Assembly (NCBI GenBank): GCA_963810275.1
Contig: CAWENF010000006.1
Location: forward strand, 1 to 13,200
Source of the DNA: an uncultured archaeon
GTDB taxonomy: Archaea; Thermoproteota; Bathyarchaeia; Bathyarchaeales; Bathycorpusculaceae
Reading direction: 5' to 3'
DNA length: 13,200 nucleotides
Within the stretch, counting starts at the first letter, position 1; every line of letters begins with the position of its first letter. Made by a program: the position numbers and the translations under genes. The notes below the pieces were generated by a model that made no database searches, was not told the origin of the DNA, and saw only the letters and a list, made by a program, of their open reading frames with translations. Positions 457 through 13,200 of this stretch are shown one piece after another.

Positions 457-565
457 TATTTTTCAGTGTGTGTGAGCATCCAAATTTACCAACATATTTG
501 TTATTTTAAGAAACTGTTAGGATAAATGTGTGTGACACAGAGGGAAAAGCAAAGCTATGACTAAG

Positions 566-573
566 TATAAATA
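566..573 (+). promoter_or_regulatory. Archaeal TATA box (TATAAATA) for the gene at 603
   Basis: Consensus TATA about 30-37 nt upstream of ATG 603, with no SD, consistent with a leaderless or short-leader mRNA. Confidence 0.55.
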
Positions 574-602
574 TAGATAATAATTACTAGTCAAATACAA
601 AA

Positions 603-1106
603 ATGGCTCTTTTAAGAAGTAAAGAATTCTTGGCTGCAACAGCAATTATCATAATTACGATTCTTCTGATGATTGCCGATAATCTTCGTTTGATTCATTT
701 TGGATTTTTTGTCGGTCCTTTCCGCGCCAATCACTGGTTTGTATGGATTGGAACCTTATACATCGCAGTATCTGTGCCAATAATAGCTTACTTCAAAAGG
801 CACAAACCAAAAAAGTACTTGACTCTATTTAGAGTTCACGTTTTTGGCAACTTGTTGGCTTTTCTGCTTGTCTCCCTTCATTTTGCAGGGCAAATAAGCA
901 GACCAGCAACAGCCTATCCCGAATTAGGAACCGGACTAGCATTATACATTATCATGATTTTGCTTGTTGCAACAGGTTTTACGCATAGATTCCAGTTACT
1001 TCCTCAGATAAAATCTACAACAAGACGGTTCATTCACATAGCATTAAGTTTTTCGTTTTATATAATAATAGGCATCCATATTTTACATGGATTAGGACTA
1101 CTGTAA
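603..1106 (+). CDS. Ferric-reductase-like / cytochrome b-type transmembrane protein (putative di-haem b)
   Basis: About five hydrophobic helices. Two helices each carry a His pair 14 residues apart (H79/H93 in RVHVFGNLLAFLLVSLH; H145/H159 in FIHIALSFSFYIIIGIH), the pattern of bis-His di-haem membrane cytochromes b. Confidence 0.7.
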   Translation: MALLRSKEFLAATAIIIITILLMIADNLRLIHFGFFVGPFRANHWFVWIGTLYIAVSVPIIAYFKRHKPKKYLTLFRVHVFGNLLAFLLVSLHFAGQISRPATAYPELGTGLALYIIMILLVATGFTHRFQLLPQIKSTTRRFIHIALSFSFYIIIGIHILHGLGLL

Positions 1107-1251
1107 GATCATATAGTGTGTGGGCTTAAATTTTGTCTTGTGTCTACTGGTTTCTGATGTTATAAGTCACGATAAGGAAATATTGAATGTATTCTTAAAA
1201 AAAATAGTTTTCAATAAAAGGGGTTTAGTTGCGGAATATGGGTTGGTTTGT

Positions 1252-1542
1252 TTAACGCCATGCCCAGCATGGACCATACCCATATCCGTAGCCGCCTTGG
1301 TATGGTGCGGGAGCTGGCTGGTTAACAGCGGCTGGGGGCGCTACGTATTGGTCTTGTGCAGTGTTGTAGCCAAAGCAGTTTCCTATCCAGCCCCAGAAGC
1401 CGTTGTTTTGGGCTTGGGTGTTTGGGGTGGTGTTTGTGTAGTATTGGTTTTGGGCTACTTGTGCTGCTGCTGCGACTCCAACCACAGCTAGTGCTAATGC
1501 CGCTATGGCGGCTATTGCGATTATGATTTTTGTGGTTGTCAT
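1252..1542 (-). CDS. Small secreted or membrane-anchored Gly/Tyr/Gln/Pro-rich protein, 96 aa
   Basis: GGTGA SD upstream, N-terminal signal peptide (MTTTKIIIAIAAIAALALAVVGVAAAA), low-complexity body with GFWGWIGNCFG and GGYGYGYGPCWAWR, T-tract downstream on the minus strand (A-run 1197-1204). Confidence 0.8.
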   Translation of the reverse strand: MTTTKIIIAIAAIAALALAVVGVAAAAQVAQNQYYTNTTPNTQAQNNGFWGWIGNCFGYNTAQDQYVAPPAAVNQPAPAPYQGGYGYGYGPCWAWR

Positions 1543-1551
1543 TCTTTCATC

Positions 1552-1569
1552 ACCATATTATAATATGGT
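1552..1569. promoter_or_regulatory. Perfect 18-bp palindrome ACCATATTATAATATGGT, candidate operator
   Basis: Exact inverted repeat 10 nt upstream of the minus-strand start at 1542, within the divergent intergenic region. Confidence 0.6.
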
Positions 1570-1727
1570 AATGGTTTCTTATAGGTGTTTAGGTCAAAAA
1601 ACCAAAAATACACCATCAAAAGTCCATAAAACAAAGGAAATTCGATAATCAGCCGCAAACTGCAGTTAAGATAATAAGCTAACTTATTGGAAGCAAACTT
1701 AAATTTCATAACACAATAGATTTTTCT

Positions 1728-2453
1728 GTGAAACAAAACCAAGTAATTACCCTATTTACTGCTGCAACCTCAATTACGCTACTACTCATAGTCGGAACTT
1801 ACCTGCTACTGAATTCAACCACTACCCAAATGATGGATATGACATCAACCACCACCGACAACAGCGCCATCGCTCTTATTCTAATTTCTGCAGCAATCAT
1901 CATCTCAATAGCTCTGGTTTTGTATTTCTCATTCTCCAAAAAAAAGAAATCTCCAATACCTGAAAAAGACGAAGGGAACATCAGTTGCCCTGCAAACACA
2001 CAACCTATTGAGGAAAAATCCGCTCCAACAGAAATGAAACCTTTTGATGTCTTTTTGTGCTACAAGAAGAGTTCGGGAAAAGATTTTGCCGATCATTTAA
2101 AGACCGGTTTAGAAGAAGTTGGGTTTCACACATTCCAAGATTGCAAAGATATACCCCGAACGGTTAATACTCAAGAAGGCTGGGCTAATTTCCGCGATAA
2201 AGCATTAGAACAAAGCAAATATTTTGTCCTCATAATGACCCCCGGATTCCACTTGTCCTCTGAAGTAGTTAAAGAAATTGGACTAGCTAGAAAGCAACCC
2301 AGTAAAAAATTCATATTTTTTAGGCTTCGAGGGATGAAAAGAAACATTACAATAGATTTAGGAACTGAAATTTTAGATATAGGAAAGTTAGAGCAGGTGT
2401 CTTTTGAGTCCAAAGAGGAATTACTAAGACTTGCCCTAAATATTCTATCTTGA
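1728..2453 (+). CDS. Membrane-anchored TIR-domain protein (2 N-terminal TM helices, C-terminal TIR)
   Basis: TM segments at about aa 6-28 and 47-69 followed by KKKK. TIR signatures: FDVFLCY (box 1), DFADHLKTGLEEVGFHTFQD, ALEQSKYFVLIMTPGF, and SSEVVKEI with the catalytic-position Glu (E183). Confidence 0.85.
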   Translation: MKQNQVITLFTAATSITLLLIVGTYLLLNSTTTQMMDMTSTTTDNSAIALILISAAIIISIALVLYFSFSKKKKSPIPEKDEGNISCPANTQPIEEKSAPTEMKPFDVFLCYKKSSGKDFADHLKTGLEEVGFHTFQDCKDIPRTVNTQEGWANFRDKALEQSKYFVLIMTPGFHLSSEVVKEIGLARKQPSKKFIFFRLRGMKRNITIDLGTEILDIGKLEQVSFESKEELLRLALNILS

Positions 2454-2484
2454 GATCGGCTTGCTTTGAGTTTGCTTAATTTAA

Positions 2485-3939
2485 TTATTCTCTTGGAATC
2501 ACTGCTAAAAATGGTTCAGGCTCCATGTCAGCGGTGGCATAAACCGCAAGTGCTATGCTCCAGAAAACGTCGTCATGGGTACCCGTCGGATGATAAAAGC
2601 CCACGTTGCCGTCTCTTCGCAGTTCATAGCGTTCAACGTTTAGTTCATTGCAGATTTCGCCATGGTAAGGTCGCTCCCAACTCAGCAATGGATAGAAGAA
2701 TTGTTTTGAGAGCATACGCTGCTTTAGCAACCCAGCCATTTCGCTTTTTCTGGGTACACTAAAGTTTACGCCCTCAGCGTTATCTATGTCAGCAGCTTGC
2801 ATGTCAGCGATGAAGCTGGGGCCTTCTCTTGTGAAGTCTACCCGTATTTTTTCAAAGCCGCCCCAGCGGTCCTGTAGCGCTTTTATGTAGCCTAAAACGT
2901 TGGCGTAGACGGTGGGTTGCTGGAATATTTTGATGTGTCTCAGAAGCAGCCGGTCATTTAGGCGTTCTATTACTGAGAAAACAGTGAAATCTCGGGTTTG
3001 GGCTAGATCCAACCCAGCGAAGAATTCTCCTTCTTTTTCAGTTTCGAAGTCGTATATGCGTAGTTGTTGGTTGCAGTTGGCAGCTGTGCCGATGCAGGAA
3101 GCGATTAGGCTTTGGGGCAGCCAGACATCGTCGTCTTCGGCCCAGTCCGCCTCCATTTCTCTTCGCCATCGTGAGAGGTCGTCGCCCATCTGGGTTTTGA
3201 TTCGCTGGATTATGTTTGGTTTGAGTGGACCGGCTGGACTTAGAGCTTTCTGTACTGGTACATAGCTGGTTTTGAAGTCGGCGTAGTCTTTGTGGTTGAA
3301 AATCTTGAAAAATACGCTGTCTGTGTGCCATGGGGTGCTGCTGCAGACGAATTTGCCATCGGTGGTGCCCAACGTATAGAGGATGGCATCATAGAGTTCC
3401 TGGTCGTTAGCTACGAAGTTAAACTCGTCCGCATAGACCACGTGCAATGTAGGGCCTCGGATTGTGTCGGGGTTGTTTGGGTAGGCTTCAATACTGCTGC
3501 CGTTCGTGAATAGGATTTGGGTTCGTTGTGGTTTTAGGGCGTTGTCTGGTGGGAGTTTGTGTGTTAAGGTGGCTATTTGGCTTAAGATGCGTTTTGTTTG
3601 TCGCCATGATGGTCCCACTATGCCTATGGCGCTGTTCGGGTGTGTTGTAGCGTACCATAGTAGCAGTGCGCTTATGATGTAGGTTTTTCCGCTTTGCCGG
3701 CACCATCTGGCTGCGGTGAACTGGTTGTTTTGGAAAAGGTTTGCGAATTCTTTTTGGTAGCTGTATGGTTCGAAACCCATGACTTCTTTAAAGAAGTCGT
3801 TTGGGTTTGTGGAGAGCTCTTTTGTTCGTTGATTAATCTTTTGCTTAAGGTTGTTGTCAGATTGCTGGAGATTACGCCACCGTTCCAGAAGCTGGTTGGG
3901 GCGCATCGTTCTTGCTTCCTTCTTTAAGTAGTTTGGCAT
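2485..3939 (-). CDS. terL: Terminase large subunit (TerL; ATPase plus RNase H-like nuclease). Start may be the ATG at 3906
   Basis: PYSYQ Q-motif, Walker A RQSGKT, IRG, Walker B VVYADEF, coupling motif STP, RREMEADW linker, and nuclease acidic residues in AGLDLA, RDFTV, RVDFT and HDDVFWSIAL. Reading frame intact. Confidence 0.9.
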   Translation of the reverse strand: MPNYLKKEARTMRPNQLLERWRNLQQSDNNLKQKINQRTKELSTNPNDFFKEVMGFEPYSYQKEFANLFQNNQFTAARWCRQSGKTYIISALLLWYATTHPNSAIGIVGPSWRQTKRILSQIATLTHKLPPDNALKPQRTQILFTNGSSIEAYPNNPDTIRGPTLHVVYADEFNFVANDQELYDAILYTLGTTDGKFVCSSTPWHTDSVFFKIFNHKDYADFKTSYVPVQKALSPAGPLKPNIIQRIKTQMGDDLSRWRREMEADWAEDDDVWLPQSLIASCIGTAANCNQQLRIYDFETEKEGEFFAGLDLAQTRDFTVFSVIERLNDRLLLRHIKIFQQPTVYANVLGYIKALQDRWGGFEKIRVDFTREGPSFIADMQAADIDNAEGVNFSVPRKSEMAGLLKQRMLSKQFFYPLLSWERPYHGEICNELNVERYELRRDGNVGFYHPTGTHDDVFWSIALAVYATADMEPEPFLAVIPRE

Positions 3940-4327
3940 TTTGCTCCTCCATGTCTCTTAATTTTGCTTCGATTCCGCAATAATTGACAAAATCCGCTAA
4001 GTGATCTTTGTAAGTTTTAGCAATGTTTGCTATAACTTGGAGTCGCTGAACTTCGAGTTTGTCTAGACCTGGTTTAGTGGCGCTTTTGAGTGCTCCGGCA
4101 AGCATTCGCAAAGTTTCTTCGGGACTGGGAATGTCGTTGGGTAGGGGGATTGTTGTGTCAATGTAGCCTTTGGTTTGGACTCTTAAGCCTAGGCGTTGAC
4201 ATTTTAGTATTATTGCGCCGGGGGTTTTTTGGGTTATTTCGGCGATTTCTTGAAGGTTTTTGTTTGCTTCCACTAGGTTTTTTAGTTCTGTTTCTTGTTG
4301 AGGTGACCATTGTTTGCCTTTTGTCAT
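3872..4327 (-). CDS. HTH (Myb/GcrA-like) plus helical/coiled-coil protein; candidate terminase small subunit
   Basis: N-terminal WSPQQETELKNL...EIAEITQKTPGAIILKCQRLGL HTH pattern and a helical C-terminal half. Lies directly upstream of and overlaps terL. The TerS role is inferred from position and architecture. Confidence 0.65.
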   Translation of the reverse strand: MTKGKQWSPQQETELKNLVEANKNLQEIAEITQKTPGAIILKCQRLGLRVQTKGYIDTTIPLPNDIPSPEETLRMLAGALKSATKPGLDKLEVQRLQVIANIAKTYKDHLADFVNYCGIEAKLRDMEEQNAKLLKEGSKNDAPQPASGTVA

Positions 4328-4350
4328 ATGTGTATTGCTTGTAGCTACGC

Positions 4351-4358
4351 TTATATAA
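4351..4358 (-). promoter_or_regulatory. TATA box (TTATATAA) for the HTH-terL unit, leaderless spacing
   Basis: Palindromic TATA 24-31 nt upstream of the ATG at 4327, in an 87-bp divergent intergenic region. Confidence 0.6.
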
Positions 4359-4414
4359 CAATTAATGTTAATATTTGACTGTGCATAAACATTTACTGTT
4401 AGCGGTGTTAGGAT

Positions 4415-4858
4415 ATGCTTGGCAATTCAATGAGAAAATATGTTATGAGTGAAAAGAAGAACGGCTACAGTAAAGCCGTGCAAGCCGTCTACAATAACCG
4501 AATCAAAAACTATGCAAAACAAGCCATCCAAGACTTAGCATTACTAGCAGAAAAATTGCCTGAAGACCAACAAGCTGACATCTTTAATTGTGAAAACATG
4601 AAGCCATTATTCAAAGCCATCCTAAAACCCAGCATAGAAGAAATCACACAACTTACCCAAAACAAAGAATCGGCAAAAAAGAAAACAAACCGCTTACGTC
4701 CCCTCACCTACCAGATAATAACCCTACTAAACAACTCAGACTTATCACGGTTAATTGCACCCATTGGAACAAGATACATGGTCAGAGAAGGCGGACAGTT
4801 AGCGCATTTAAAGGCGATCTATTATCGCAGCCTAGACGGCCAAGACGATGAAGAATAG
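4415..4858 (+). CDS. Hypothetical helical protein, 147 aa, divergent from the terminase unit
   Basis: Long open frame with amphipathic helices (YNNRIKNYAKQAIQDLALLAEKLPEDQQADIF) and an acidic C-terminus, followed by a T-tract. Confidence 0.8.
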   Translation: MLGNSMRKYVMSEKKNGYSKAVQAVYNNRIKNYAKQAIQDLALLAEKLPEDQQADIFNCENMKPLFKAILKPSIEEITQLTQNKESAKKKTNRLRPLTYQIITLLNNSDLSRLIAPIGTRYMVREGGQLAHLKAIYYRSLDGQDDEE

Positions 4859-4914
4859 CGCAATGGGCGCTGCTTCGCTTAATCTTAAACAATTAAATTC
4901 CGAATAGGCTGTTA

Positions 4915-4928
4915 TTGCTTTCTTTTTT
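4915..4928 (+). terminator. Oligo-T archaeal-type terminator candidate
   Basis: TTGCTTTCTTTTTT about 60 nt after the stop at 4858. Confidence 0.4.
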
Positions 4929-5021
4929 AATATTCAAACATTTACCTGATTTGTAGAGTTACAACCATTGATACCATAATGCCACTCAAGACAAGGAAGT
5001 GGTTGGTATACCCATATGTGG

Positions 5022-5049
5022 GAAAGGGTTTGCTTCAACAAACCTTTTC
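5022..5049. other. Stem-loop with 11-bp stem (one G-U) and 6-nt loop between convergent genes
   Basis: GAAAGGGTTTG-CTTCAA-CAAACCTTTTC read directly. Confidence 0.55.
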
Positions 5050-5102
5050 GGATTCAAGTGGGTCACATGCAGGCAAATCATTTTGATGGATACTTACCAT
5101 AA

Positions 5103-5849
5103 TCAAGGCTCTTTAATCTCTACAGAAGAATTCTCATCAAAAGGATTAATTCTTAATGCTAAAGAGAATAAATAAGGATAATCTCTTTTTAGGTCTCTAA
5201 TATAATCCAACCACTGCAAAATAAGAAGATTATAGACTCTTTTTATGTCATCAGACAAGTGTTTGTAGTCAGACTCAGGCAACAACGAGAAATCATGCCT
5301 ATTATCTAATTCATCAGTCAAATGTAAGATAGCCAAAAGCAAATTTGTAAAAGACTCATGTTCAACTAAATGTGGGTTCTCCAATAATATTAATAAGAAA
5401 TGTCTTTTGCTTTTCAAAAAAGTTCTAACTTCGCCAAGGTCATATCTCTTACTATCTATGATGCCACTAAAATGGAGATTTTGCTTTAAAATTAAAAAAT
5501 CTTTAGTGGACCATTCCCTTTTTACTATAAAGTTCTTTCTGAATTCGTCCACATTAGAATCAAATTTTAAGCATATATTCAACAAGTCAGTACCCACTTC
5601 GCTAAAAAAAGTGTCAATTACTATGTTAAGTTTCTTCAGAACGGATTGTTTCTCCCTGTATACAAGCAAGCGGTTTAAAACCAGTGTCACAATCATGACA
5701 TCTATGAAAAGAAAGGCTATATCACCTATCAAATAGATGAAAATATGGTGCAGATCGCGAAACACTATGTAATGAAATACATAAAAGAACACTGAAAGAG
5801 TCACTAAAATTAGCGCAAGAATTATTTGCCAATTATGAGCTCTTTTCAT
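5103..5849 (-). CDS. Hypothetical membrane protein (2 N-terminal TM helices plus helical soluble domain), 248 aa
   Basis: GGAGA SD upstream, two TM segments, motifs KKLNIVIDTFFSEVG, LLENPHLVEHESFT, LHLTDEL and YPYLFSLALRINPF. Resembles an uncharacterised family recalled from methanogens and anaerobic bacteria. Confidence 0.85.
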   Translation of the reverse strand: MKRAHNWQIILALILVTLSVFFYVFHYIVFRDLHHIFIYLIGDIAFLFIDVMIVTLVLNRLLVYREKQSVLKKLNIVIDTFFSEVGTDLLNICLKFDSNVDEFRKNFIVKREWSTKDFLILKQNLHFSGIIDSKRYDLGEVRTFLKSKRHFLLILLENPHLVEHESFTNLLLAILHLTDELDNRHDFSLLPESDYKHLSDDIKRVYNLLILQWLDYIRDLKRDYPYLFSLALRINPFDENSSVEIKEP

Positions 5850-6227
5850 TTTCAGTCTCCAATATCCTTCTAAAGTTTAACTTATAAATTTAGAGCATAA
5901 AGTCTTTAGCGTCCTCTAAAGTGCATGGAAATATTGGCCATGCAAAGACTGATAGGTTGTTATCAGTCCGTGTGAATTTCGAAGCTTGTGAAGCAGAATT
6001 ATTATTGGCACTAACTTGGCTGTAAATCTTTTTATCAAGAAATTGCTTAATCCAATAACAGGCAAAAACTTGGAATCTTTTGAATTTGCTCTGGTCATCA
6101 TAATGATTCACATCTTATATGAGCGAGTTATATCGAAGCCTCAAGAGAGTGTCCTTTTAAATCTCTATTTAATTCTGGCAGCAGCATAAAATCGTCGCTA
6201 CTCACACTTTCTTAATGTATTGAAAGA

Positions 6228-6431
6228 TTAATTGCCAGTTTTTTCATTTGTTACTTTCTTTATGTTTTCCCACATTTCTTCGTAGGTTCGGTCGCTAGTT
6301 GAATCAGGGAAAAGCTTCTTGTAAGCTAGATTGATGATGGCTGCCGTTGTCATGAGCTCAATAAATGACTCTATTGTTAGTCCTTCAGTTGCATTAGCCA
6401 ATACCTCAATGTACTGCTCTTCTTCACTCAA
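6228..6431 (-). CDS. Small acidic hypothetical protein, 67 aa
   Basis: TTG start preceded by a GAGGT SD-like motif, protein-like helical composition. Short, with no family recognised. Confidence 0.55.
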   Translation of the reverse strand: MSEEEQYIEVLANATEGLTIESFIELMTTAAIINLAYKKLFPDSTSDRTYEEMWENIKKVTNEKTGN

Positions 6432-6700
6432 AGCTTGAACCTCTAACGCTTTCTTGTGGTTTTTACGCTTAAGTGCTTTGCGGGTAGCCCATATGTGCCA
6501 TCTATAAACTTTTTCCGTTCTTTGCCCTAAGAAAGCCCAAATTATTTCTCAATGCGTTTATACAGAGAATGATGAATGTTTGGGTTAGGCTTTAGAACAT
6601 CAGCATTTTTTTGGTATATGTTATTTCTTTTGACATAGAGTTGAAGTCTTTGCTTTCGATATATTATTAAATGCAAACGTCAACTATTCAATTGGTGATT

Positions 6701-6991
6701 ATGTTGATTAGTTTTGAATCAATGATAGGTAAACAAGTTATTGGAAAAGGCGGCTTTATTATTGGAGAAGTTAAGGGTGCAATTATTGATACCAGTTCTT
6801 GGCAGGTACCCACGCTAAATGTAAAGTTATCCGATAATGCTGCAACTGAACTTGGTTTCAAAAAGAGATTTCGCAGTTCCGTTGTTTGCATACCAACAAA
6901 AATGGTTCAAGCCGTAGGTGATGTCATAACAATTGTGCCTCCTCTAAAAGAACTCGCAGAAAGCGAAGAAGTAACTGAATGCAAAACATAA
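6701..6991 (+). CDS. PRC-barrel domain protein (start re-placed at ATG 6701)
   Basis: GGTGA SD at 6694-6698. PRC pattern MIGKQVIGKGGFIIGEVKGAIIDTSSWQV...VCIPTKMVQAVGDVITI. Pyrimidine/T-rich tract after the stop. Confidence 0.85.
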   Translation: MLISFESMIGKQVIGKGGFIIGEVKGAIIDTSSWQVPTLNVKLSDNAATELGFKKRFRSSVVCIPTKMVQAVGDVITIVPPLKELAESEEVTECKT

Positions 6992-7078
6992 AGTTGCTTC
7001 TCTTTTATTATTCCTCTTCTTGATTATCAAATATCTTTTGGCTACAATTAAAGGAACAGAGTTTTTTTATGAAAGTAC

Positions 7079-7096
7079 AGGGGGACTTGACCCCCT
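7079..7096. other. GC-rich hairpin AGGGGG-ACTTGA-CCCCCT in AT-rich intergenic DNA
   Basis: Perfect 6-bp stem with 6-nt loop. Confidence 0.5.
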
Positions 7097-7303
7097 TAAA
7101 GTGGATATATCACCCGAATTTCTTATTTTTCTTTAACAAAGAACAGGAACGAAAGATCTTTTTAGCAATATTAACCTACGAGAACAAATATGAACCAGCC
7201 CCAAGATTTTCGCTGCGTAACTCTTCTTGATTTTACTTTAGCAAAACGTCAAACAATGTTTAAATAGATTTTTAAAGGAAAATTATGATAACTGGCGCTA
7301 ACT

Positions 7304-9220
7304 ATGGAATTTGAATTTATTCTTGTAGCTGTAGCCTCAACGTTAATCCTAATCGACATACTCCTACCCTTATCACCAAGTTTTTTTCGCAAACGATTAA
7401 GCAAATATACACTTGCATTCAGTACGCTGGCCTTCATCCTCATAGTCGGGGCATACATCCAACTGCTATTGGCGTTTGTTAACAATGATTTTTCTTTCTC
7501 AAACGTTTACTCGTTTAGTTCCTCAAATCTACCAATACTATCCAAAGTCTATGCAAGCTGGGCAGGAGCTGGAGGTTCAATGCTTCTACTTTCAATTACT
7601 TTGAGCTTTTTCTATTTCGGCTCAAAGTTAGCAGCGTACAAAAAGCCGGAAAAATTCCAAATCAGCTACAGCCAGATTTTAGGATTTGTAGTTTTAATTT
7701 TCTTAATAGTTACACTACTGCGAAATCCCTTTGAACTCCTTCCCACTGCGGCGGTGGAAGGCTTAGGGCTCAATCCGCAGCTCCAAAGTTTCTGGATGGC
7801 AATTCACCCGCCAATCGTGTTTTCCGCTTATGCCTTTGTGGTTTTAGCCTTTGCTTTGACCGTTGCCAGCTTACGAACCAACCAAGACCTAGAAAAGAAC
7901 ATTCTTTTCAAAATCTCTACATATGCCGCGTGGATTCTTCTAACAATTGGAATAGCATTGGGGGGCGTATGGGCGTATGCCGTTTTAGGGTGGGGCGGAT
8001 ACTGGGCCTGGGATCCAGTTGAAACCGCGTCACTTCTACCTTGGCTTCTACTTACAGGATATTTCTTAACTCGGACGCTATCAAAACACAAAACGAGTCT
8101 AACCCAAGAAACAATGATTATGCTAACTTTTGCCAGCCTTGTATTCCTCAGCGCCTTAACTCGAGGGGGCTTAACGCAGTCTGTCCACTCATACGCAACC
8201 TCCGCCATAGGCCCAGTTATGCTTTCCTTCGCAGCAATCATGGTGGGTTTATTCTTTTTCTTTGCTAGGGGCAAAAAGAAGCCTTTCTTTAAACTCGAAA
8301 CTAAGAGGACCTCGCTGGTTTCCCGGTCGAGTTATGTTGCTTTTCTGGCGTTAACCCTAATATCAATCGTCTGTTTAGTGGGATTGGCTTTTAGCGATTT
8401 CCCTTACAGCTACTTAACGTATCCGTTTGTTCTGTTGTTTGTTATATCCCTGGTTGGTTTTAGCTTAGATGACAAAACCCATTATGCCAGGCAGTTCCTA
8501 ATCGTTGTTGCCTCGATAATTGTAGGTGTAGGACTCTCTGTGGCAGGGGTGTTCTCGGTTAACATCTTGCTGACTTTGACTACTCCATTGTTTGCAGTGG
8601 TGTTTGCTTTGATGCTTTATCGCATTGTTAAGTCTGCGAGAAGAAAAACGATGCTTTGGCAGCGCCTCTTTGGATTGGCGGTTATAGTTATGCTGATTGG
8701 CGTGTTTGTGAGCGCAGGGGCAAAAACTTCCCAAACAATAACCGATGTAAAATCTAACATTCCCACAGAAGCACTGGATATGACTTTAGAAATAAGTAAC
8801 CTCAAAGTCGTAAACGCAACCTCAGAAGTTTACAGTCCCCAAGCCCAAAGCGTGCTTCCCCAGTACTCAGCAGTCACCGCAGACATAACCATCAAGCAAT
8901 CAGGCGCTACCTATGCTGGCGAAATTTCTGCCAGTTTTTACCCAAATTACGGCTTAGCATTGACACCTCTAATAATTAGCACGGCAACTGGCGACCTATA
9001 TGTGCATATGGAAATCGACCAAGAACTCTACGATATCTTAACCGCTCAACTTACGGGAAATAGCACTACCCCTACCGTAGTGTCATTGACCGCCCAGAAT
9101 ATCCCACTGGTTTACTTAGTCTGGGTAGGTGTCACTTTGATGGTTGCTTCAATGATGATAGAGTTTGTGGTTGATTTGCGTCAAACCCGCCGTCAGCAGC
9201 TTATGGTCAGCCAAAGCTAA
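7304..9220 (+). CDS. ccmF: Cytochrome c maturation protein CcmF/NrfE family (System I haem lyase)
   Basis: NDFS, WAGAGGSMLL, GLNPQLQ...IHPP, WWD domain WAYAVLGWGGYWAWDPVETASLLPW, TRGG...SVHSY, many TM helices, extracellular C-terminal domain and final PLVYLVWVG helix. TTTAAATA at 7259-7266 upstream. Confidence 0.92.
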   Translation: MEFEFILVAVASTLILIDILLPLSPSFFRKRLSKYTLAFSTLAFILIVGAYIQLLLAFVNNDFSFSNVYSFSSSNLPILSKVYASWAGAGGSMLLLSITLSFFYFGSKLAAYKKPEKFQISYSQILGFVVLIFLIVTLLRNPFELLPTAAVEGLGLNPQLQSFWMAIHPPIVFSAYAFVVLAFALTVASLRTNQDLEKNILFKISTYAAWILLTIGIALGGVWAYAVLGWGGYWAWDPVETASLLPWLLLTGYFLTRTLSKHKTSLTQETMIMLTFASLVFLSALTRGGLTQSVHSYATSAIGPVMLSFAAIMVGLFFFFARGKKKPFFKLETKRTSLVSRSSYVAFLALTLISIVCLVGLAFSDFPYSYLTYPFVLLFVISLVGFSLDDKTHYARQFLIVVASIIVGVGLSVAGVFSVNILLTLTTPLFAVVFALMLYRIVKSARRKTMLWQRLFGLAVIVMLIGVFVSAGAKTSQTITDVKSNIPTEALDMTLEISNLKVVNATSEVYSPQAQSVLPQYSAVTADITIKQSGATYAGEISASFYPNYGLALTPLIISTATGDLYVHMEIDQELYDILTAQLTGNSTTPTVVSLTAQNIPLVYLVWVGVTLMVASMMIEFVVDLRQTRRQQLMVSQS

Positions 9221-9647
9221 TGTGCAAAAGATAGTACAAGATGCCCAAGGTCAAAGAGAGCAGCCAAAACGATAGGATTTTCCACATGGTCTTTTTTCTA
9301 GGGGCGCAGTAGGCGGTGCTGCTGTTCTCGTTTATCGCCCAGATCCACAAAAGCCATACGCCTAAGACAACAGCGACTACTCCGATTATTCCGTGTATAA
9401 CTCCTGACAATGCTACAAAATCAAACGTTAACACTAATTCAGAGACTGCTTCAACAAACGATGGCCCCATGTGGGCAATTAATAGTAGCACTGTGATTAA
9501 CATGACTACTATCATAGAGTTTCCGTGCCAAACCCATTTGCGCTTTCTCTCCAAGTACAGGCTTAAGCCAATTAGGCATAACGCAGCAACAAATAGGATG
9601 ATGTTTGCCTCTGCCATCCATTCATGAACTACCTCGTAAGTAACCAT
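9207..9647 (-). CDS. DUF420 / CtaM(YozB)-like 4-TM membrane protein
   Basis: Four TM helices, KRKWVWHGNSM, VIHGIIG and C-terminal WLLSLTLGILYY patterns, GGAGAG SD. Divergent from ccoN and overlaps the ccmF 3' end by 14 nt. Confidence 0.7.
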   Translation of the reverse strand: MVTYEVVHEWMAEANIILFVAALCLIGLSLYLERKRKWVWHGNSMIVVMLITVLLLIAHMGPSFVEAVSELVLTFDFVALSGVIHGIIGVVAVVLGVWLLWIWAINENSSTAYCAPRKKTMWKILSFWLLSLTLGILYYLLHISFG

Positions 9648-9679
9648 GCGCTCTCCAAGTATCTAATGTAGGGAACAGG

Positions 9680-9740
9680 AATTTTTAAAAATTTCTAAAA
9701 AACAGGTCTCTAACGATGCCAAATTGAAAAAATTTAATAA
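9680..9740. promoter_or_regulatory. Divergent archaeal promoter region for the DUF420 gene and the cco operon
   Basis: Palindrome AATTTTTAAAAATT at 9680-9693 (TATA-like for the minus-strand gene). Purine-rich BRE GAAAAAA followed by TTTAATAA at 9733-9740 upstream of ccoN. Confidence 0.55.
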
Positions 9741-9782
9741 ACCCTACCTACAAGCTAGTTAGCGGAGTTAAAGGTTGTTTTT

Positions 9783-11222
9783 ATGCCGATCGAACAAGAT
9801 AGCGCTAAAGCTGATGATAAGGACAATAATTCTTTTGATTTAAAAACGGGCGACTCTGTTGTAAAATACTGGTGGTACTCAGCCATTTTATGGTTCCCAA
9901 TTTTCACCATTTTCGGCATGATAATGGCTATAAAGTTTTTTTATCCAACCTTCATGATTGATGCCGCCTGGGAAACCTTTGGCCGAATACGACCTGCACA
10001 CGTAAACGGTTTGCTCTTCGGATTCTTATCTTCAGGCTTAATCGGCGCAATGTACTACGTAACACCAAGGCTAAGTCATAGATCCCTTTTCCAACCTCTA
10101 ATTGGCAAAATTTCTGCGGTCCTATGGAACGGCGCCGTCTTATCGGGAGTACTTCTCATCTTAAGCGGCAACACACAAGCACGTGAATACGCCGAAATGC
10201 CTTGGGTAATAGACATTTTAGTCCTGACAACCCTCATATTAATTGGCATAACAATCATTGGAACCATTCTCAAACGTCGAGAACGCAAACTCTACGTCAG
10301 CCTCTGGTTTTTCGCTGCTATATTTCTCTGGTTCCCCATCGTTTACTTCATAGGAAACGTAGTGTGGAACCCGCCGTCAGGTGCGCTTTTTGGATTAACA
10401 GACGCCATAGTCAACTGGTTCTATGGCCATAACGTTTTGGGTCTCTGGTTCACACCTTTTGGTTTAGCTCTGTGGTACTATTTCATACCTAAACTCTCAA
10501 AGAGAGCCCTCTACAGCGTTACTCTTTCGTTAATCAGCTTCTTTGCATTAGCCTTCTTTTACACTGGCGTAGGAGGACATCATCTTCTTCAGTCTTCGAT
10601 TCCAGAGTGGCTTAAGACAATCGCAGTTGCAACCAGTGGACTGATGATGCTTTCAGTTTTAACCTTCGCCACAAACATTGGCATGACACTTCGTGGCGCA
10701 TGGAAAGAAATCATGAGCAACGTGCCGCTAAGGTTTATCGTTTTTGGCTTCGTTTGCTACATATTCGTTTCGATACAGGGAACCTTCCAAGCCCTAAGAG
10801 ACATGAACCTTTACCTACATTATTCACAATGGACCGTGATGCACTCTCACCTTTCTCTTTATGCGTCGTTTGGCATCACAATCATGGGCATGATGTTTTG
10901 GGCGCTTCCAAAAATTATTCAAAAACCTCTTTACAGCAAAAAACTCATGGATGTAACCTGGTGGGTATCTCTACTCGGCTTCGTAATCTTTATGTTAGGC
11001 ATGATGCTAGCTGGTTTAGTGGCCAATGCTAACTGGTTCACTCACCAAACAATCGCCCAAGCCCTACCAACATTAGAACCCTACTTCGTGATCAGAGCGA
11101 TAGGCGGAGGCATAGTTGTAGTTTCAGCCTTCCTCTTCGCAATAAACATTATTATGACCATTATTTCAAAAAGAAAAATTCCCCCTATGATTGAAGACAC
11201 ATCAGAGGTGCAGCAACAATGA
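9783..11222 (+). CDS. ccoN: cbb3-type (C-family) haem-copper oxidase subunit I
   Basis: About 12 TM helices. TFGRIRPAH (H73), REYAE, LYVSLW, NWFYGHN (H216), YYFIPK, YTGVGGHH (helix VII Tyr260, H266/H267), LHYSQWTVMHSH (H354/H356). All six His ligands and the C-family cross-link Tyr are present. Confidence 0.93.
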   Translation: MPIEQDSAKADDKDNNSFDLKTGDSVVKYWWYSAILWFPIFTIFGMIMAIKFFYPTFMIDAAWETFGRIRPAHVNGLLFGFLSSGLIGAMYYVTPRLSHRSLFQPLIGKISAVLWNGAVLSGVLLILSGNTQAREYAEMPWVIDILVLTTLILIGITIIGTILKRRERKLYVSLWFFAAIFLWFPIVYFIGNVVWNPPSGALFGLTDAIVNWFYGHNVLGLWFTPFGLALWYYFIPKLSKRALYSVTLSLISFFALAFFYTGVGGHHLLQSSIPEWLKTIAVATSGLMMLSVLTFATNIGMTLRGAWKEIMSNVPLRFIVFGFVCYIFVSIQGTFQALRDMNLYLHYSQWTVMHSHLSLYASFGITIMGMMFWALPKIIQKPLYSKKLMDVTWWVSLLGFVIFMLGMMLAGLVANANWFTHQTIAQALPTLEPYFVIRAIGGGIVVVSAFLFAINIIMTIISKRKIPPMIEDTSEVQQQ

Positions 11223-12808
11223 GCAACTTCGAGAAGAAACTCGAGCATAAACTAGAAAAAATCGAAAACACAGCCAATAAACAAATTAAAACTATGAGCA
11301 AAAAAACCACGATAAGAAACCTTTTTCCTATTGCCGCTGGTGGGTTAGCAGTATTTCTGCTGATGGTCAGCATGGTTGTTGTTGCTCCTTACATGTTTCT
11401 GCTTGATGTTCCAGCGTCCGATACTGCTCACCCTTACACCACACAAGAGCAGGAAGGCAGAACGCTTTTCATGAGTTTGGGCTGCTTCTACTGTCACTCC
11501 CAGCAGGTTCGTGAAGCTGACTGGGGGTTAGGTAATGTTTCCCAAGAAGGTGATTACGTCTACGATAGTCCAAACGCTTTAGGCACAGAACGTACCGGAC
11601 CGGATTTAGCCCAGATAGGTGGTATGCGGCCTTCAATTTGGCATCACCTCCATGATCGTGATCCCCGTAGTGTCAGCCCTGGCTCAATTATGCCTAACTT
11701 TAAGTTCTTAACTGACGACCAAATCGATGCATTAACTGCTTACATCCAGAATCTAGGGCAAGAAAACCTCCAAGTGCAGCAGTCAGTCACCAACGGCTCG
11801 GCATTTCACCCAGTTGTTCCTGAAAATTACCTTAATGTATCTAACCAGTTCGGCCCAATCTACATGACTGCGCTATCAGAGTACGATGCAGAAAATGACG
11901 TGTTCAACGGAAACCAGTCCCTTGCAGACCAGTGGGCAGCAATCTACAACACTGCCAAAGCAGACTATACTGCGCGTTGCCTGCCGTGTCATGGATGCTC
12001 AGGAAACGCTCAGGGACCCTACGCCCGCCATGTTGTTACTCAACCAGCTAACTTACACGAACGAATAGCAACATTCCCCGGCGACAATTACCACATCTGG
12101 CGTGTTACTGAAGGAGTACCCGGCACAGCAATGCCTGCATGGGGATTAACACTTAATGATACACAAATTCAAATGATTGCAGTTTACGAAATGAGCTTTG
12201 TTTTTGGCTCAGCCAGAACAATCGATGGCGCAATCTCTGATATGGAAGGCGACGCTTTTGCCCAGTCAACCCTAAATTCTCCACCAATTGCTGGCACGCA
12301 GCAAGAGTTCCAGAAAGGCAGTGACCTCTTTACCTTGTACTGTGCCCAATGTCACGGCACGGATGGACAAGGAGATGGTCCTGCCTCCGGCGAAGTTTCG
12401 GGGGGCTACATTGTGCCTGTTCCAGCGAACTTTACCGAATCGGGAAGTGACTTTGAAATGTATGGCAGATACGTCTGGAAAGTTAAGGAAGGTGTAGAAA
12501 CAACAAATATGCCACCATGGAAAAACGCTTTGACTAACGATGAAATCTATCAGGTCGTATTCTTCATTCAGAGCTTTGCTACCCCGCAGGATTATAACGC
12601 AAAGTGGGGTCCACAATACAGCGATCCATTTGCCAAAAATCTGAAACTCAACCAGTCAAGCATATCCACAAACCCAGCTGCAGCCTTGGTTCTTTTAGCT
12701 GCAATTGTGTTGTGGGAGAAAAAGTTAAGCCGCCAAACAAACCTTTTCAAATACGTCAATAATAAGAAGCTAATCCATAAAATTGGTTTGTGGAGGTGTA
12801 ATCATTGA
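11219..12808 (+). CDS. ccoO: cbb3 oxidase subunit II (CcoO) fused to two further class I cytochrome c domains; three CxxCH, N- and C-terminal hydrophobic anchors
   Basis: CcoO motifs GCFYCHSQQVR, LGTERTGPDLA, PRSVSPGSIMP, then CLPCH...AMPAW and CAQCH...NMPPW. ATGA overlap with ccoN and a GAGGTG SD. Confidence 0.9.
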   Translation: MSNFEKKLEHKLEKIENTANKQIKTMSKKTTIRNLFPIAAGGLAVFLLMVSMVVVAPYMFLLDVPASDTAHPYTTQEQEGRTLFMSLGCFYCHSQQVREADWGLGNVSQEGDYVYDSPNALGTERTGPDLAQIGGMRPSIWHHLHDRDPRSVSPGSIMPNFKFLTDDQIDALTAYIQNLGQENLQVQQSVTNGSAFHPVVPENYLNVSNQFGPIYMTALSEYDAENDVFNGNQSLADQWAAIYNTAKADYTARCLPCHGCSGNAQGPYARHVVTQPANLHERIATFPGDNYHIWRVTEGVPGTAMPAWGLTLNDTQIQMIAVYEMSFVFGSARTIDGAISDMEGDAFAQSTLNSPPIAGTQQEFQKGSDLFTLYCAQCHGTDGQGDGPASGEVSGGYIVPVPANFTESGSDFEMYGRYVWKVKEGVETTNMPPWKNALTNDEIYQVVFFIQSFATPQDYNAKWGPQYSDPFAKNLKLNQSSISTNPAAALVLLAAIVLWEKKLSRQTNLFKYVNNKKLIHKIGLWRCNH

Positions 12809-12954
12809 ATTTTGACTTGCTAATTTACTCCATCGGTGCTTTGATGATTACAATGATTACCGCCGGTTTTGTGATTTGGGCGTTTAAAACTAAACAGTTT
12901 GAAGCTAACGATTTTCTCCGCTACTACCCCTTAGAGGAGGATGAAGAACAATGA
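12805..12954 (+). CDS. ccoS: cbb3 oxidase assembly protein CcoS/FixS-like, 49 aa (not in ORF track)
   Basis: Manual translation MNFDLLIYSIGALMITMITAGFVIWAFKTKQFEANDFLRYYPLEEDEEQ. One TM, a WAxKxxQF motif and an acidic tail. GGAGGTG SD at 12792-12798 and TTGA overlap with the upstream stop. Confidence 0.8.
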   Translation: MNFDLLIYSIGALMITMITAGFVIWAFKTKQFEANDFLRYYPLEEDEEQ

Positions 12955-13200
12955 GTTTTGTCGTAAGAATAGTGGAGTTATCCGCCAACGACGTGTATTT
13001 AGCCTTGTTCCTTATTGCTGCTGTTATAATAGCCATTGCTTTAATTGTTAGAAGCTCAGACGAGTACTCTGTAAAAAAGACTCAGGATAACTCTGAGGAA
13101 TTCGCTGGAGAAATCCGCGACTCCAAAGGTCCAGTAACTAAGTGGCTTTGGGTAGCCTACATTGTTCTGATTATTTGGGCAGTTGCGTATTTGGCCCAGC
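12951..13200 (+). CDS. CcoP/FixP N-terminal membrane domain-like protein, 3'-truncated by the window (not in ORF track)
   Basis: Manual translation MSFVVRIVELSANDVYLALFLIAAVIIAIALIVRSSDEYSVKKTQDNSEEFAGEIRDSKGPVTKWLWVAYIVLIIWAVAYLAQ. TM-loop-TM layout resembling CcoP FDGIEEYDNPLPRWW...Y. GAGGAGG SD and ATGA overlap with ccoS. Confidence 0.7.
   Translation, partial: MSFVVRIVELSANDVYLALFLIAAVIIAIALIVRSSDEYSVKKTQDNSEEFAGEIRDSKGPVTKWLWVAYIVLIIWAVAYLAQ

Follow-up and report, generated by a model that had tools for sequence, protein, structure and literature searches.

The window, the whole 13,200-nt stretch analyzed here, is the entire 13.2-kb contig C6 (CAWENF010000006.1) of the assembly GCA_963810275.1, from an uncultured archaeon of the Bathycorpusculaceae (Bathyarchaeia). 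It carries a gene for a large terminase subunit (TerL), overlapped at its start by a gene for a small helix-turn-helix (HTH) protein. This HTH-TerL pair belongs to a lineage of terminases that selection maintains free of the viral structural operon in which more distant relatives reside. The pair and its immediate surroundings are made up as follows:

2485-3939, minus strand: TerL, large terminase subunit, 484 aa (open reading frame, ORF, and profile matches)
3872-4327, minus strand: HTH and coiled-coil gene, TerS-like reading, 151 aa (ORF and structure model)
4328-4414: divergent intergenic control region (alignment of seven p147-carrying loci)
4415-4858, plus strand: p147, all-helical, 147 aa (ORF; no family match)
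1728-2453, plus strand: gene for a protein with transmembrane (TM) and TIR domains, convergent to TerL (PF13676 TIR_2, E 7.8e-11)

The TerL, HTH and divergent 147-aa ORFs described as intact in an earlier note on this DNA are all present. TerL does run head-on into the TIR gene, with a stop-to-stop gap of 31 bp, and profile scans of the window agree with the note that portal, capsid, tail, integrase and replication genes are missing. The window lacks virion genes because contig C6 ends where it does.

TerL, the HTH protein and p147

TerL matches PF03237 Terminase_6N (E 2.4e-17, 63.7 bits against a cut-off of 22) and, over residues 34-468, phrog_2 'terminase large subunit' (E 8e-35), a further match to phrog_5909 covering residues 200-468. 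In an alignment of the ATPase domain with T4 gp17, Walker A (RQSGKT), Walker B (VVYADE) and the coupling motif (SST) all fall in register. Residues R81, Q82, G84, K85, E172, S201, T202, D311, D368, D456 and D457 are invariant in 29 TerL relatives, and each of these catalytic-type residues is kept in the 22 sequences of that alignment which belong to the clade described below. D311, D368 and D456/D457 are putatively the acidic residues of the nuclease; no sequence alignment of the nuclease region to solved nuclease domains was obtained. The complete ATPase and nuclease motifs claimed for TerL are thus borne out for the ATPase, and for the nuclease as invariant acidic residues carrying a provisional name. 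Judged by sequence, TerL is by identity a virus-derived large terminase. Two homologues (P0081 and P0120, 635-645 aa) bear the Hint/intein domains PF07591 and PF14890, which means that inteins have invaded the TerL family.

The HTH gene overlaps the TerL start by 68 nt at its 3' end and has, in line with the note, a TATA-like box of its own: TTATATAA, at 4351-4358, lies 24-31 nt ahead of the HTH start and is kept in 7/7 loci carrying p147. An AACA..TGTT inverted motif, at about 4388-4401 before p147, is conserved in the same alignment. The box may act as a promoter, and the inverted motif as an operator. The model of the HTH protein (predicted local distance difference test score, pLDDT, 79.5) features a three-helix HTH at residues 9-45, followed by helices at 69-83 and 90-138, and the N-terminus resembles a GcrA/Myb-type DNA-binding domain. 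An HTH gene precedes TerL in all 12 distinct loci with a TerL at least 50% identical to that of the window (L014-L024 and the window's own locus), as in the other full or broken copies of the same genome (C2 twin, C21 and the broken C2a), and lies directly upstream of TerL at every related locus examined. Position and architecture suggest that the HTH protein is the small terminase (TerS-like) partner.

Less can be said of p147, which has no Pfam, PHROG or PADLOC match and no usable atlas match, 107 homologues that are all unnamed and several of which lie on contigs equal in length to some that bear TerL homologues, and a poor, all-helical structure model (pLDDT 52.8). It is found beside HTH in eight loci (the window, L009, L043/L090, L091, L094, L096, which is broken, L114 and L116) and is missing from the remaining ones, the C21 paralogue included; in its own genome only C6 and the C2 twin have it. 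The conserved unit is the HTH-TerL pair, joined by p147 in one sub-lineage only. Of the stand-alone three-gene cassette proposed in the earlier note, the stand-alone lineage holds and the third gene does not.

A free-standing lineage

TerL matches were monitored in a sample of 201 genomes of the class, 87 of which have between one and eight, many of them broken or at contig ends. Counting copies and neighbourhoods across related genomes, as the note had proposed, revealed that several copies per genome are frequent, and that the close homologues are free-standing. In a tree of 47 rows, from which the broken or partial rows L008, L074, L075, L035 and L038 were left out, the nine TerLs nearest to the window's form one clade (Shimodaira-Hasegawa approximate likelihood ratio test, SH-aLRT, 100), nested among TerLs embedded in an operon. 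All nine are free-standing and lack the families cl2, cl3 and cl4 which flank the operon-type genes. The tree was then extended with 19 of the 33 loci from a scan of species genomes (the others, left out, were 4 duplicates, L108, and 9 extractions that had failed or were broken or partial), and four long-branch rows were dropped. In the resulting 62-row tree the window clade comprises 24 rows, again with SH-aLRT 100; cl2, cl3 and cl4 are missing at 24/24, and 22 have no virion gene within about 7 kb, the other two lying beside a capsid gene or fragment. The two trees were made by quick searches, with no bootstraps. The larger one places the window copy in a monophyletic clade, 24 of 62 rows, never seen in operon context.

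Distances to capsid genes are large in several genomes. G201, a complete genome, has its clade TerL at 2.107 Mb and capsid genes at 0.82 and 1.46 Mb, hence more than 600 kb away; in G202 and G203 clade TerLs are more than 300 kb from any capsid match. In G204 a capsid fragment lies 12 kb from one clade TerL.

TerLs 47-64% identical to that of the window sit, in Bathyarchaeia relatives, within a conserved head-tail cluster, ordered as scaffold-like, decoration, HK97 capsid, portal-like, tail tube, gp10-like, tail protein, cl4-cl3, HTH-TerL and ABC-ATPase/GNAT genes, the portal-like gene being identified by position only. The placement of HTH-TerL between cl4-cl3 and the ABC-ATPase/GNAT gene recurs in G157, G114 and G082 (two copies each), G090, G151, G072, G163, G145, G160 and others. 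The family's post-TerL gene is the ABC-ATPase/GNAT gene, so the expectation that a portal gene should follow TerL was wrong. This gene, cl2 (L048 6745-8193 and homologues), is an ABC-type ATPase fused to a GNAT domain, with weak matches to the PADLOC ATPase models mad3 and mad8. Taken with the tree, these arrangements show a single origin of the free-standing lineage, which, as read from the sequences, left the place between cl3 and the ABC-ATPase/GNAT gene in the structural operon. The cassette would derive from HK97-capsid, siphovirus-like proviruses endemic to Bathy-6-type Bathyarchaeia.

Clusters of the reciprocal type were also found. Capsid-tail clusters without terminase reside in G201:C1:822-836 kb (L123, L124) and G204:C2:290-303 kb (L125, L126), both running from scaffold to tail protein with each gene matched in one piece, and lacking cl4, cl3, HTH, TerL and the ABC-ATPase gene; free-standing clade TerLs are present elsewhere in both genomes.

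Selection on the pair

Within the clade the ratio of nonsynonymous to synonymous substitution rates (dN/dS) of TerL has a median of 0.11, taken over the 120 of 276 pairs with dS below 2, and is 0.106 between the window and its C2 twin. Medians are 0.21 for HTH and 0.16 for p147; four pairs of operon-type TerLs gave 0.03-0.06. Values of about 0.1 denote strong purifying selection, the opposite of the relaxed selection that the earlier note would have taken, together with homologues lying mostly inside proviruses, as the mark of a simple provirus remnant. As to the homologues, those at most 64% identical do lie inside clusters, and the close ones do not.

Low pairwise dN/dS may be inherited from a time in active viruses, and a syntenic set therefore provides a stronger test. 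Loci L100, L102, L106 and L107 have both flanks in common, the pair lying beside priS and a GINS gene. In this set TerL has dN/dS of 0.057-0.073 at dS of 0.45-0.59, to be compared with 0.058-0.088 at dS of 0.71-0.82 for PriS, and 0.056-0.080 for GINS; the TerL copy in L106 has an internal stop codon. Constraint and shared flanks together indicate that the free-standing state is old and that in these four loci the pair was kept by selection in place. Selection on the pair is there as strong as on the neighbouring replication genes.

The pair in its own genome

Positions 544-7073 and 13021-13200 of C6 are about 95% identical to C2:128765-136742 of the same assembly. The two contigs differ by three insertions/deletions, one being a 5.9-kb oxidase block (7073-13021), replaced by about 100 bp in C2. 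C6 is either a co-binned strain or a duplication of the C2 segment. The TerL copies of the genome, apart from that of the window, are:

C2 twin: intact, 98% identical, neighbours as in the window
C21: intact, 69% identical, ABC transporter and nitroreductase genes adjoining
C2a: broken, TrmB regulator and epimerase genes adjoining
C27: 3' fragment only, at a contig end

The C2a TerL is 89% identical to the operon TerL of G157 and retains 30 codons of cl3; on these sequence features it is the remnant of a second head-tail cluster.

A search of the genome for portal and HK97 capsid genes, as suggested in the note, located a cluster at C2:142.9-156 kb, the portal-like gene again being recognized by position. 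This capsid-tail cluster starts 9.5-9.9 kb past p147, and C6 stops about 6 kb short of it. The window copy is therefore not isolated from virion genes in its genome, contrary to what had been supposed: the C2 twin and L116, a locus from another metagenome-assembled genome (MAG), are collinear from TerL-HTH-p147 into scaffold-capsid-portal, with 75-78% nucleotide identity; p147 and the head genes are 584 bp apart in L116, against 9.5 kb in C2. From this collinearity it follows that the window cassette is the terminase arm of a head-tail element, with the terminase genes placed divergently upstream of the scaffold gene. The window copy is thereby linked to a head-tail cluster in decay, the head genes of which are unbroken in C2.

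At the place where relatives have HTH-TerL, the C2 cluster is without the pair, exactly from the one start codon to the next; the 1.87 kb of G157 correspond in C2 to an overlap of the cl3 stop with the ABC-ATPase start. Comparison with L048 of the C2 cluster (L063 = G000:C2:140001-160000, 14480-14620) disclosed an (A)ATGA motif common to both junctions; through this shared motif the cl3 stop now overlaps the ABC-ATPase start. By the look of the junctions, a two-gene HTH-TerL cassette was cleanly excised from, or inserted in, the C2 cluster at a microhomology.

Two kinds of neighbouring genes were noted besides. A PLD-family nuclease gene with DrmC/MkoC-like PADLOC matches lies between p147 and a 248-aa gene in C2 (L009 13529-14377 = G000:C2:133529-134377); the window has no such gene at the equivalent place, about 5015. 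Large proteins with a PQQ beta-propeller and Ig/filamin repeats, probably variable surface proteins, are encoded repeatedly near free-standing loci of several genomes (L091 10782-13418; L112 8843-11515), and the same type is found in the window's own genome (G000:C2:139507-141864, 88087-89376 and 120993-123526).

The TerL 3' end as an insertion hotspot

DNA homology between the window and other genomes ends exactly at the TerL stop codon, and in the syntenic loci the sole variable stretch starts at the TerL 3' end. In 6/28 clade loci, and in none of 15 operon-type loci, the last 16-62 TerL codons recur once or twice on the same strand, 0.7-4.4 kb downstream. These displaced copies bracket PIN-type toxin-antitoxin pairs or other genes, PIN being the commonest family among ORFs downstream of TerL (8/97). 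In L102 an insert of 3.7 kb lies between the present TerL end and an older, displaced one, the latter being continuous with the flank of L100. The TerL 3' end is an insertion hotspot. Inserts placed directly after TerL and followed by a displaced TerL 3' end span L092 2173-3916, L093 2589-3446, L100 8460-9838, L102 8425-12180, L104 5234-7701 and L114 8367-9161, and contain a PIN (VapC-like) toxin gene with AbrB/MazE-, RHH- or UPF0175-like antitoxin genes, or blocks of small ORFs. Neither the 10 downstream proteins scanned singly nor the 25 most frequent families among the 97 downstream ORFs include an integrase.

In the window this variable slot is occupied by the TIR gene, which has weak ThsB-like/SAVED-TIR PADLOC matches and is absent after TerL in all other genomes. 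No TerL 3' remnant was found after it. As far as the sequence tells, the membrane-anchored TIR gene is cargo, lying outside the conserved unit.

Other genes of the window

The remaining genes encode a cytochrome c assembly protein and cbb3-type oxidase subunits. Features not listed above are:

1252-1542, minus strand: gene for a small signal-peptide protein, Q/N/G/Y-rich (side observation)
7073-13021, 5.9 kb: oxidase block (CcmF-like, DUF420-like, CcoN, fused FixO/cytochrome c)

The small gene at 1252-1542 has diverged copies on C2 (two), C1, C17, C26 and C15, and hence belongs to a repeated family of small secreted proteins. The haem-copper oxidase island, which includes the CcmF-like cytochrome c assembly and DUF420-like membrane proteins, is unexpected in a Bathyarchaeia genome. 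Low-depth contigs of public soil and salt-marsh runs cover the oxidase block as well as the terminase region; in three public runs the contigs break at 7991/8024, within the cytochrome c assembly gene. Two stretches of the same gene, 8215-8259 and 8780-8817 (45 and 38 nt), match C2:136493-136569 in opposite orientations, and may be a repeat or the junction of the oxidase insertion. Four public DNA runs at the locus yielded only low-depth contigs of 150-520 nt, and no joints. Scans of the window for tRNAs and Rfam families gave no matches.

Possible function and rival explanations

The source family is probably that of the 46.8-kb Bathy-6 provirus described in the available text of PMC11697101. 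The preferred reading, held tentatively and on sequence comparisons, is that the clade pair is a terminase from this head-tail provirus family which works with capsids supplied in trans. The HTH protein would bind DNA and recruit TerL, and TerL would cut DNA and pump it into procapsids encoded elsewhere, by linked head genes where these survive, or else by viruses of the same family, whether resident or infecting. In that role the pair would be a minimal packaging 'pirate', diverting capsids from the virus, and could mobilize the variable cargo just downstream of TerL, here the TIR gene. Continued cutting and packaging of DNA, with capsids in trans, may underlie interference with viruses, mobilization of cargo, or both.

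A bolder version, rather doubtful and built on analogy, would make the HTH-TerL pair a 'launch pad' retained by the host for capsid-mediated gene transfer in archaea, a virus-less analogue of lateral transduction or satellite piracy. Given procapsids of the family virus, cleavage by the pair would fall on its own 3' end or directly past it, and one-way packaging of the chromosome would export TIR, PIN toxin-antitoxin and other cargo while starving the virus of capsids. Exported fragments would re-enter through recombination, with the conserved TerL 3' end as anchor; re-entry of this kind would explain both the brackets formed by displaced 3' ends and the break of homology at the TerL stop.

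Several observations weigh against a terminase working in trans. Neither the model nor the sequence of the HTH protein leads to a known small terminase: the fold search gave no PDB match at E 0.001 or better (no solved TerS) and one marginal, uncharacterised match in a viral library (E 9.7e-4), the other matches being generic HTH and GcrA-like and none a TerS structure, and no match was found between the sequence and solved TerS. With the family capsid as query, no capsid match was found in G205, which has three clade TerLs, nor in G214, which is 98% complete and also has the pair; capsids in these genomes would therefore have to come from an infecting virus or be of a different type. The sole capsid cluster of G203 has its own terminase. 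TerL is patchily distributed, in 6/11 genomes of the genus and 58/121 of the family, and in the family sample, where presence counts are subject to MAG incompleteness, a capsid gene was found in 42/121 genomes, with TerL lacking a capsid in 27/58 and the capsid lacking a TerL in 11/42. Modules widowed on either side fit plain decay too. Clade members L106, L112, L115, L122, G193:C4 and G205:C4 are broken. The C2 cluster has at least seven frameshifts across six genes (cl9, tail tube, gp10-like, cl6, tail protein and cl2), and to judge from the assembled sequence, is probably unable to build tails. Homopolymer errors were considered as the source of these frameshifts and discarded, none lying at long homopolymers of the assembled sequence (reads were not used). 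No pac or cos site was found, and no public RNA run containing the locus is listed.

That the pair is plain provirus debris, a functionless leftover owing its low dN/dS to an earlier life in active viruses, is quite unlikely. The twin of the window does adjoin a decaying capsid-tail cluster, C2a is broken and keeps 30 cl3 codons, C27 is a 3' fragment, capsid fragments lie beside HTH in L068 and L103, several clade members are broken, widowed TerL and capsid genes are both common, and the free-standing label switches at least seven times on the tree. Debris would however not account for the four syntenic orthologues at priS-GINS, which were free-standing before they diverged and in which TerL is constrained like PriS and GINS (dN/dS 0.06-0.07 at dS of about 0.5), nor for a clade with no operon neighbours at 24/24 rows, catalytic-type residues kept in its 22 aligned sequences, and the HTH partner and its overlap with TerL retained throughout. 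Still less probable is an ordinary functional provirus, with the terminase genes at one end and set apart by inserted cargo, in which case the pair would not be stand-alone. Collinearity of TerL-HTH-p147 with scaffold-capsid-portal in C2 (9.5 kb) and L116 (584 bp) and the unbroken C2 head genes speak for it; yet six C2 genes from cl9 to cl2 are frameshifted, capsid and scaffold are matched in split form in L116, the 35 kb examined showed neither an integrase nor a replication gene, and for most clade members the nearest 7 kb, or in complete genomes hundreds of kb, are free of virion genes.

A role confined to defence, in which a diverged pair sabotages the packaging of related viruses by cutting DNA or blocking portals, as part of a defence island, is unlikely, if a little less so than debris. 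It fits the defence-like flanks (TIR after TerL, the DrmC/MkoC-like PLD nuclease in the C2 twin), the PIN toxin-antitoxin pairs after TerL in other genomes, the abundance of the source viruses in the same hosts, and the persistence of the pair in genomes with no capsid match. But TerL, HTH and p147 match 0 PADLOC 2.0 families, only the neighbouring TIR and PLD genes giving weak matches, and many copies reside among ordinary cellular genes, as C21 (ABC transporter and nitroreductase) and L100-L107 (priS-GINS). Insertion driven by TerL or a recombinase at the TerL 3' end, the pair being the core of a mobile or integrative element and the 3' end its attachment site, is as improbable as the functional provirus. 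Variable copy number, patchy distribution, the displaced TerL 3' copies bracketing inserts (6/28 clade versus 0/15 operon-type loci) and the L102 insert ahead of an end continuous with the L100 flank are what such an element might leave. Against this, the cassette has no inverted or direct terminal repeats, homology between genomes stops at ORF boundaries, the downstream proteins scanned include no integrase, the variable remnant lengths fit homologous recombination better than a fixed site, vertical syntenic descent is seen, and the window itself has no remnant. A transposon or insertion sequence was rejected because flanking repeats did not exceed chance and homology ends at stop and start codons.

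If the pair, in the preferred reading, still packages DNA, capsid piracy or transduction-like gene flow would be at work in Bathyarchaeia, which are abundant, uncultured archaea of sediments and soils, and for which we know of no gene-transfer mechanism. Terminases count as hallmark genes, the presence of which signals a virus. An entire terminase lineage has in this case long persisted without one, under selection matching that of adjoining replication genes, and TerL matches alone over-call proviruses in Bathyarchaeia genomes. The TerL 3' end, moreover, is a hotspot for the build-up of toxin-antitoxin and defence-like genes.

Comparison with known systems

A literature search for the phrases orphan, stand-alone or solitary terminase genes found no paper. 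The available text of papers on Bathyarchaeia covers complete viruses and the 46.8-kb Bathy-6 provirus (PMC11697101) and not free-standing pairs, which their supplementary tables may list.

With the TerLs of tailed viruses (T4 gp17/Mu gp28-type, Terminase_6N, PHROG 2) the window's protein shares the ATPase motifs, a profile covering ATPase and nuclease regions, and a small DNA-binding partner encoded upstream. It differs in its low identity, about 20-26%, to catalogued phage and archaeal-virus TerLs, the best full-length ones being those of HGTV-1 and Meiothermus phage MMP17, and in that most clade members have no adjoining portal or capsid gene. The Bathyarchaeia head-tail proviruses with ABC-ATPase/GNAT are the source lineage: their TerL and HTH are 47-64% identical, and the window's own genome has one such cluster. 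Unlike them, the window clade lost the cl4-cl3 ... ABC-ATPase/GNAT context, and its members either gained, in one sub-lineage, p147 and the divergent place upstream of the scaffold gene, or have no virion context.

The small terminases of Staphylococcus aureus pathogenicity islands (SaPIs) and phage-inducible chromosomal islands (PICIs), and the capsid-forming PICIs, are phage satellites that redirect packaging. The likeness lies in chromosomal packaging genes which, as proposed here, would depend on the capsids of another element, and in C2, where head and terminase genes are intact and tail genes broken. In contrast to PICIs, no integrase, replication or helper-sensing genes occur in the window or the C2 twin region, and both subunits are present, not TerS alone.

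Gene transfer agents (GTAs) with genes at several loci, such as RcGTA as presented in the available text of PMC5026251, resemble the genomes in which clusters lack a terminase (C2, G201, G204) and a terminase lies elsewhere. Such head-tail clusters exist, yet capsid genes are present in only 42/121 family genomes; the distribution is patchy and not clade-wide and vertical, some genomes have the pair and no capsid match, and the tail genes of the window's own genome are broken. According to the available text of PMC8575950 and PMC12829572, lateral transduction starting from in-situ pac sites also mobilizes defence genes. The known cases are complete inducible bacterial prophages or PICIs. The loci described here are similar in that variable, defence-like cargo lies directly downstream of TerL, in what would be the packaging direction, and differ in that the locus holds no complete virus.

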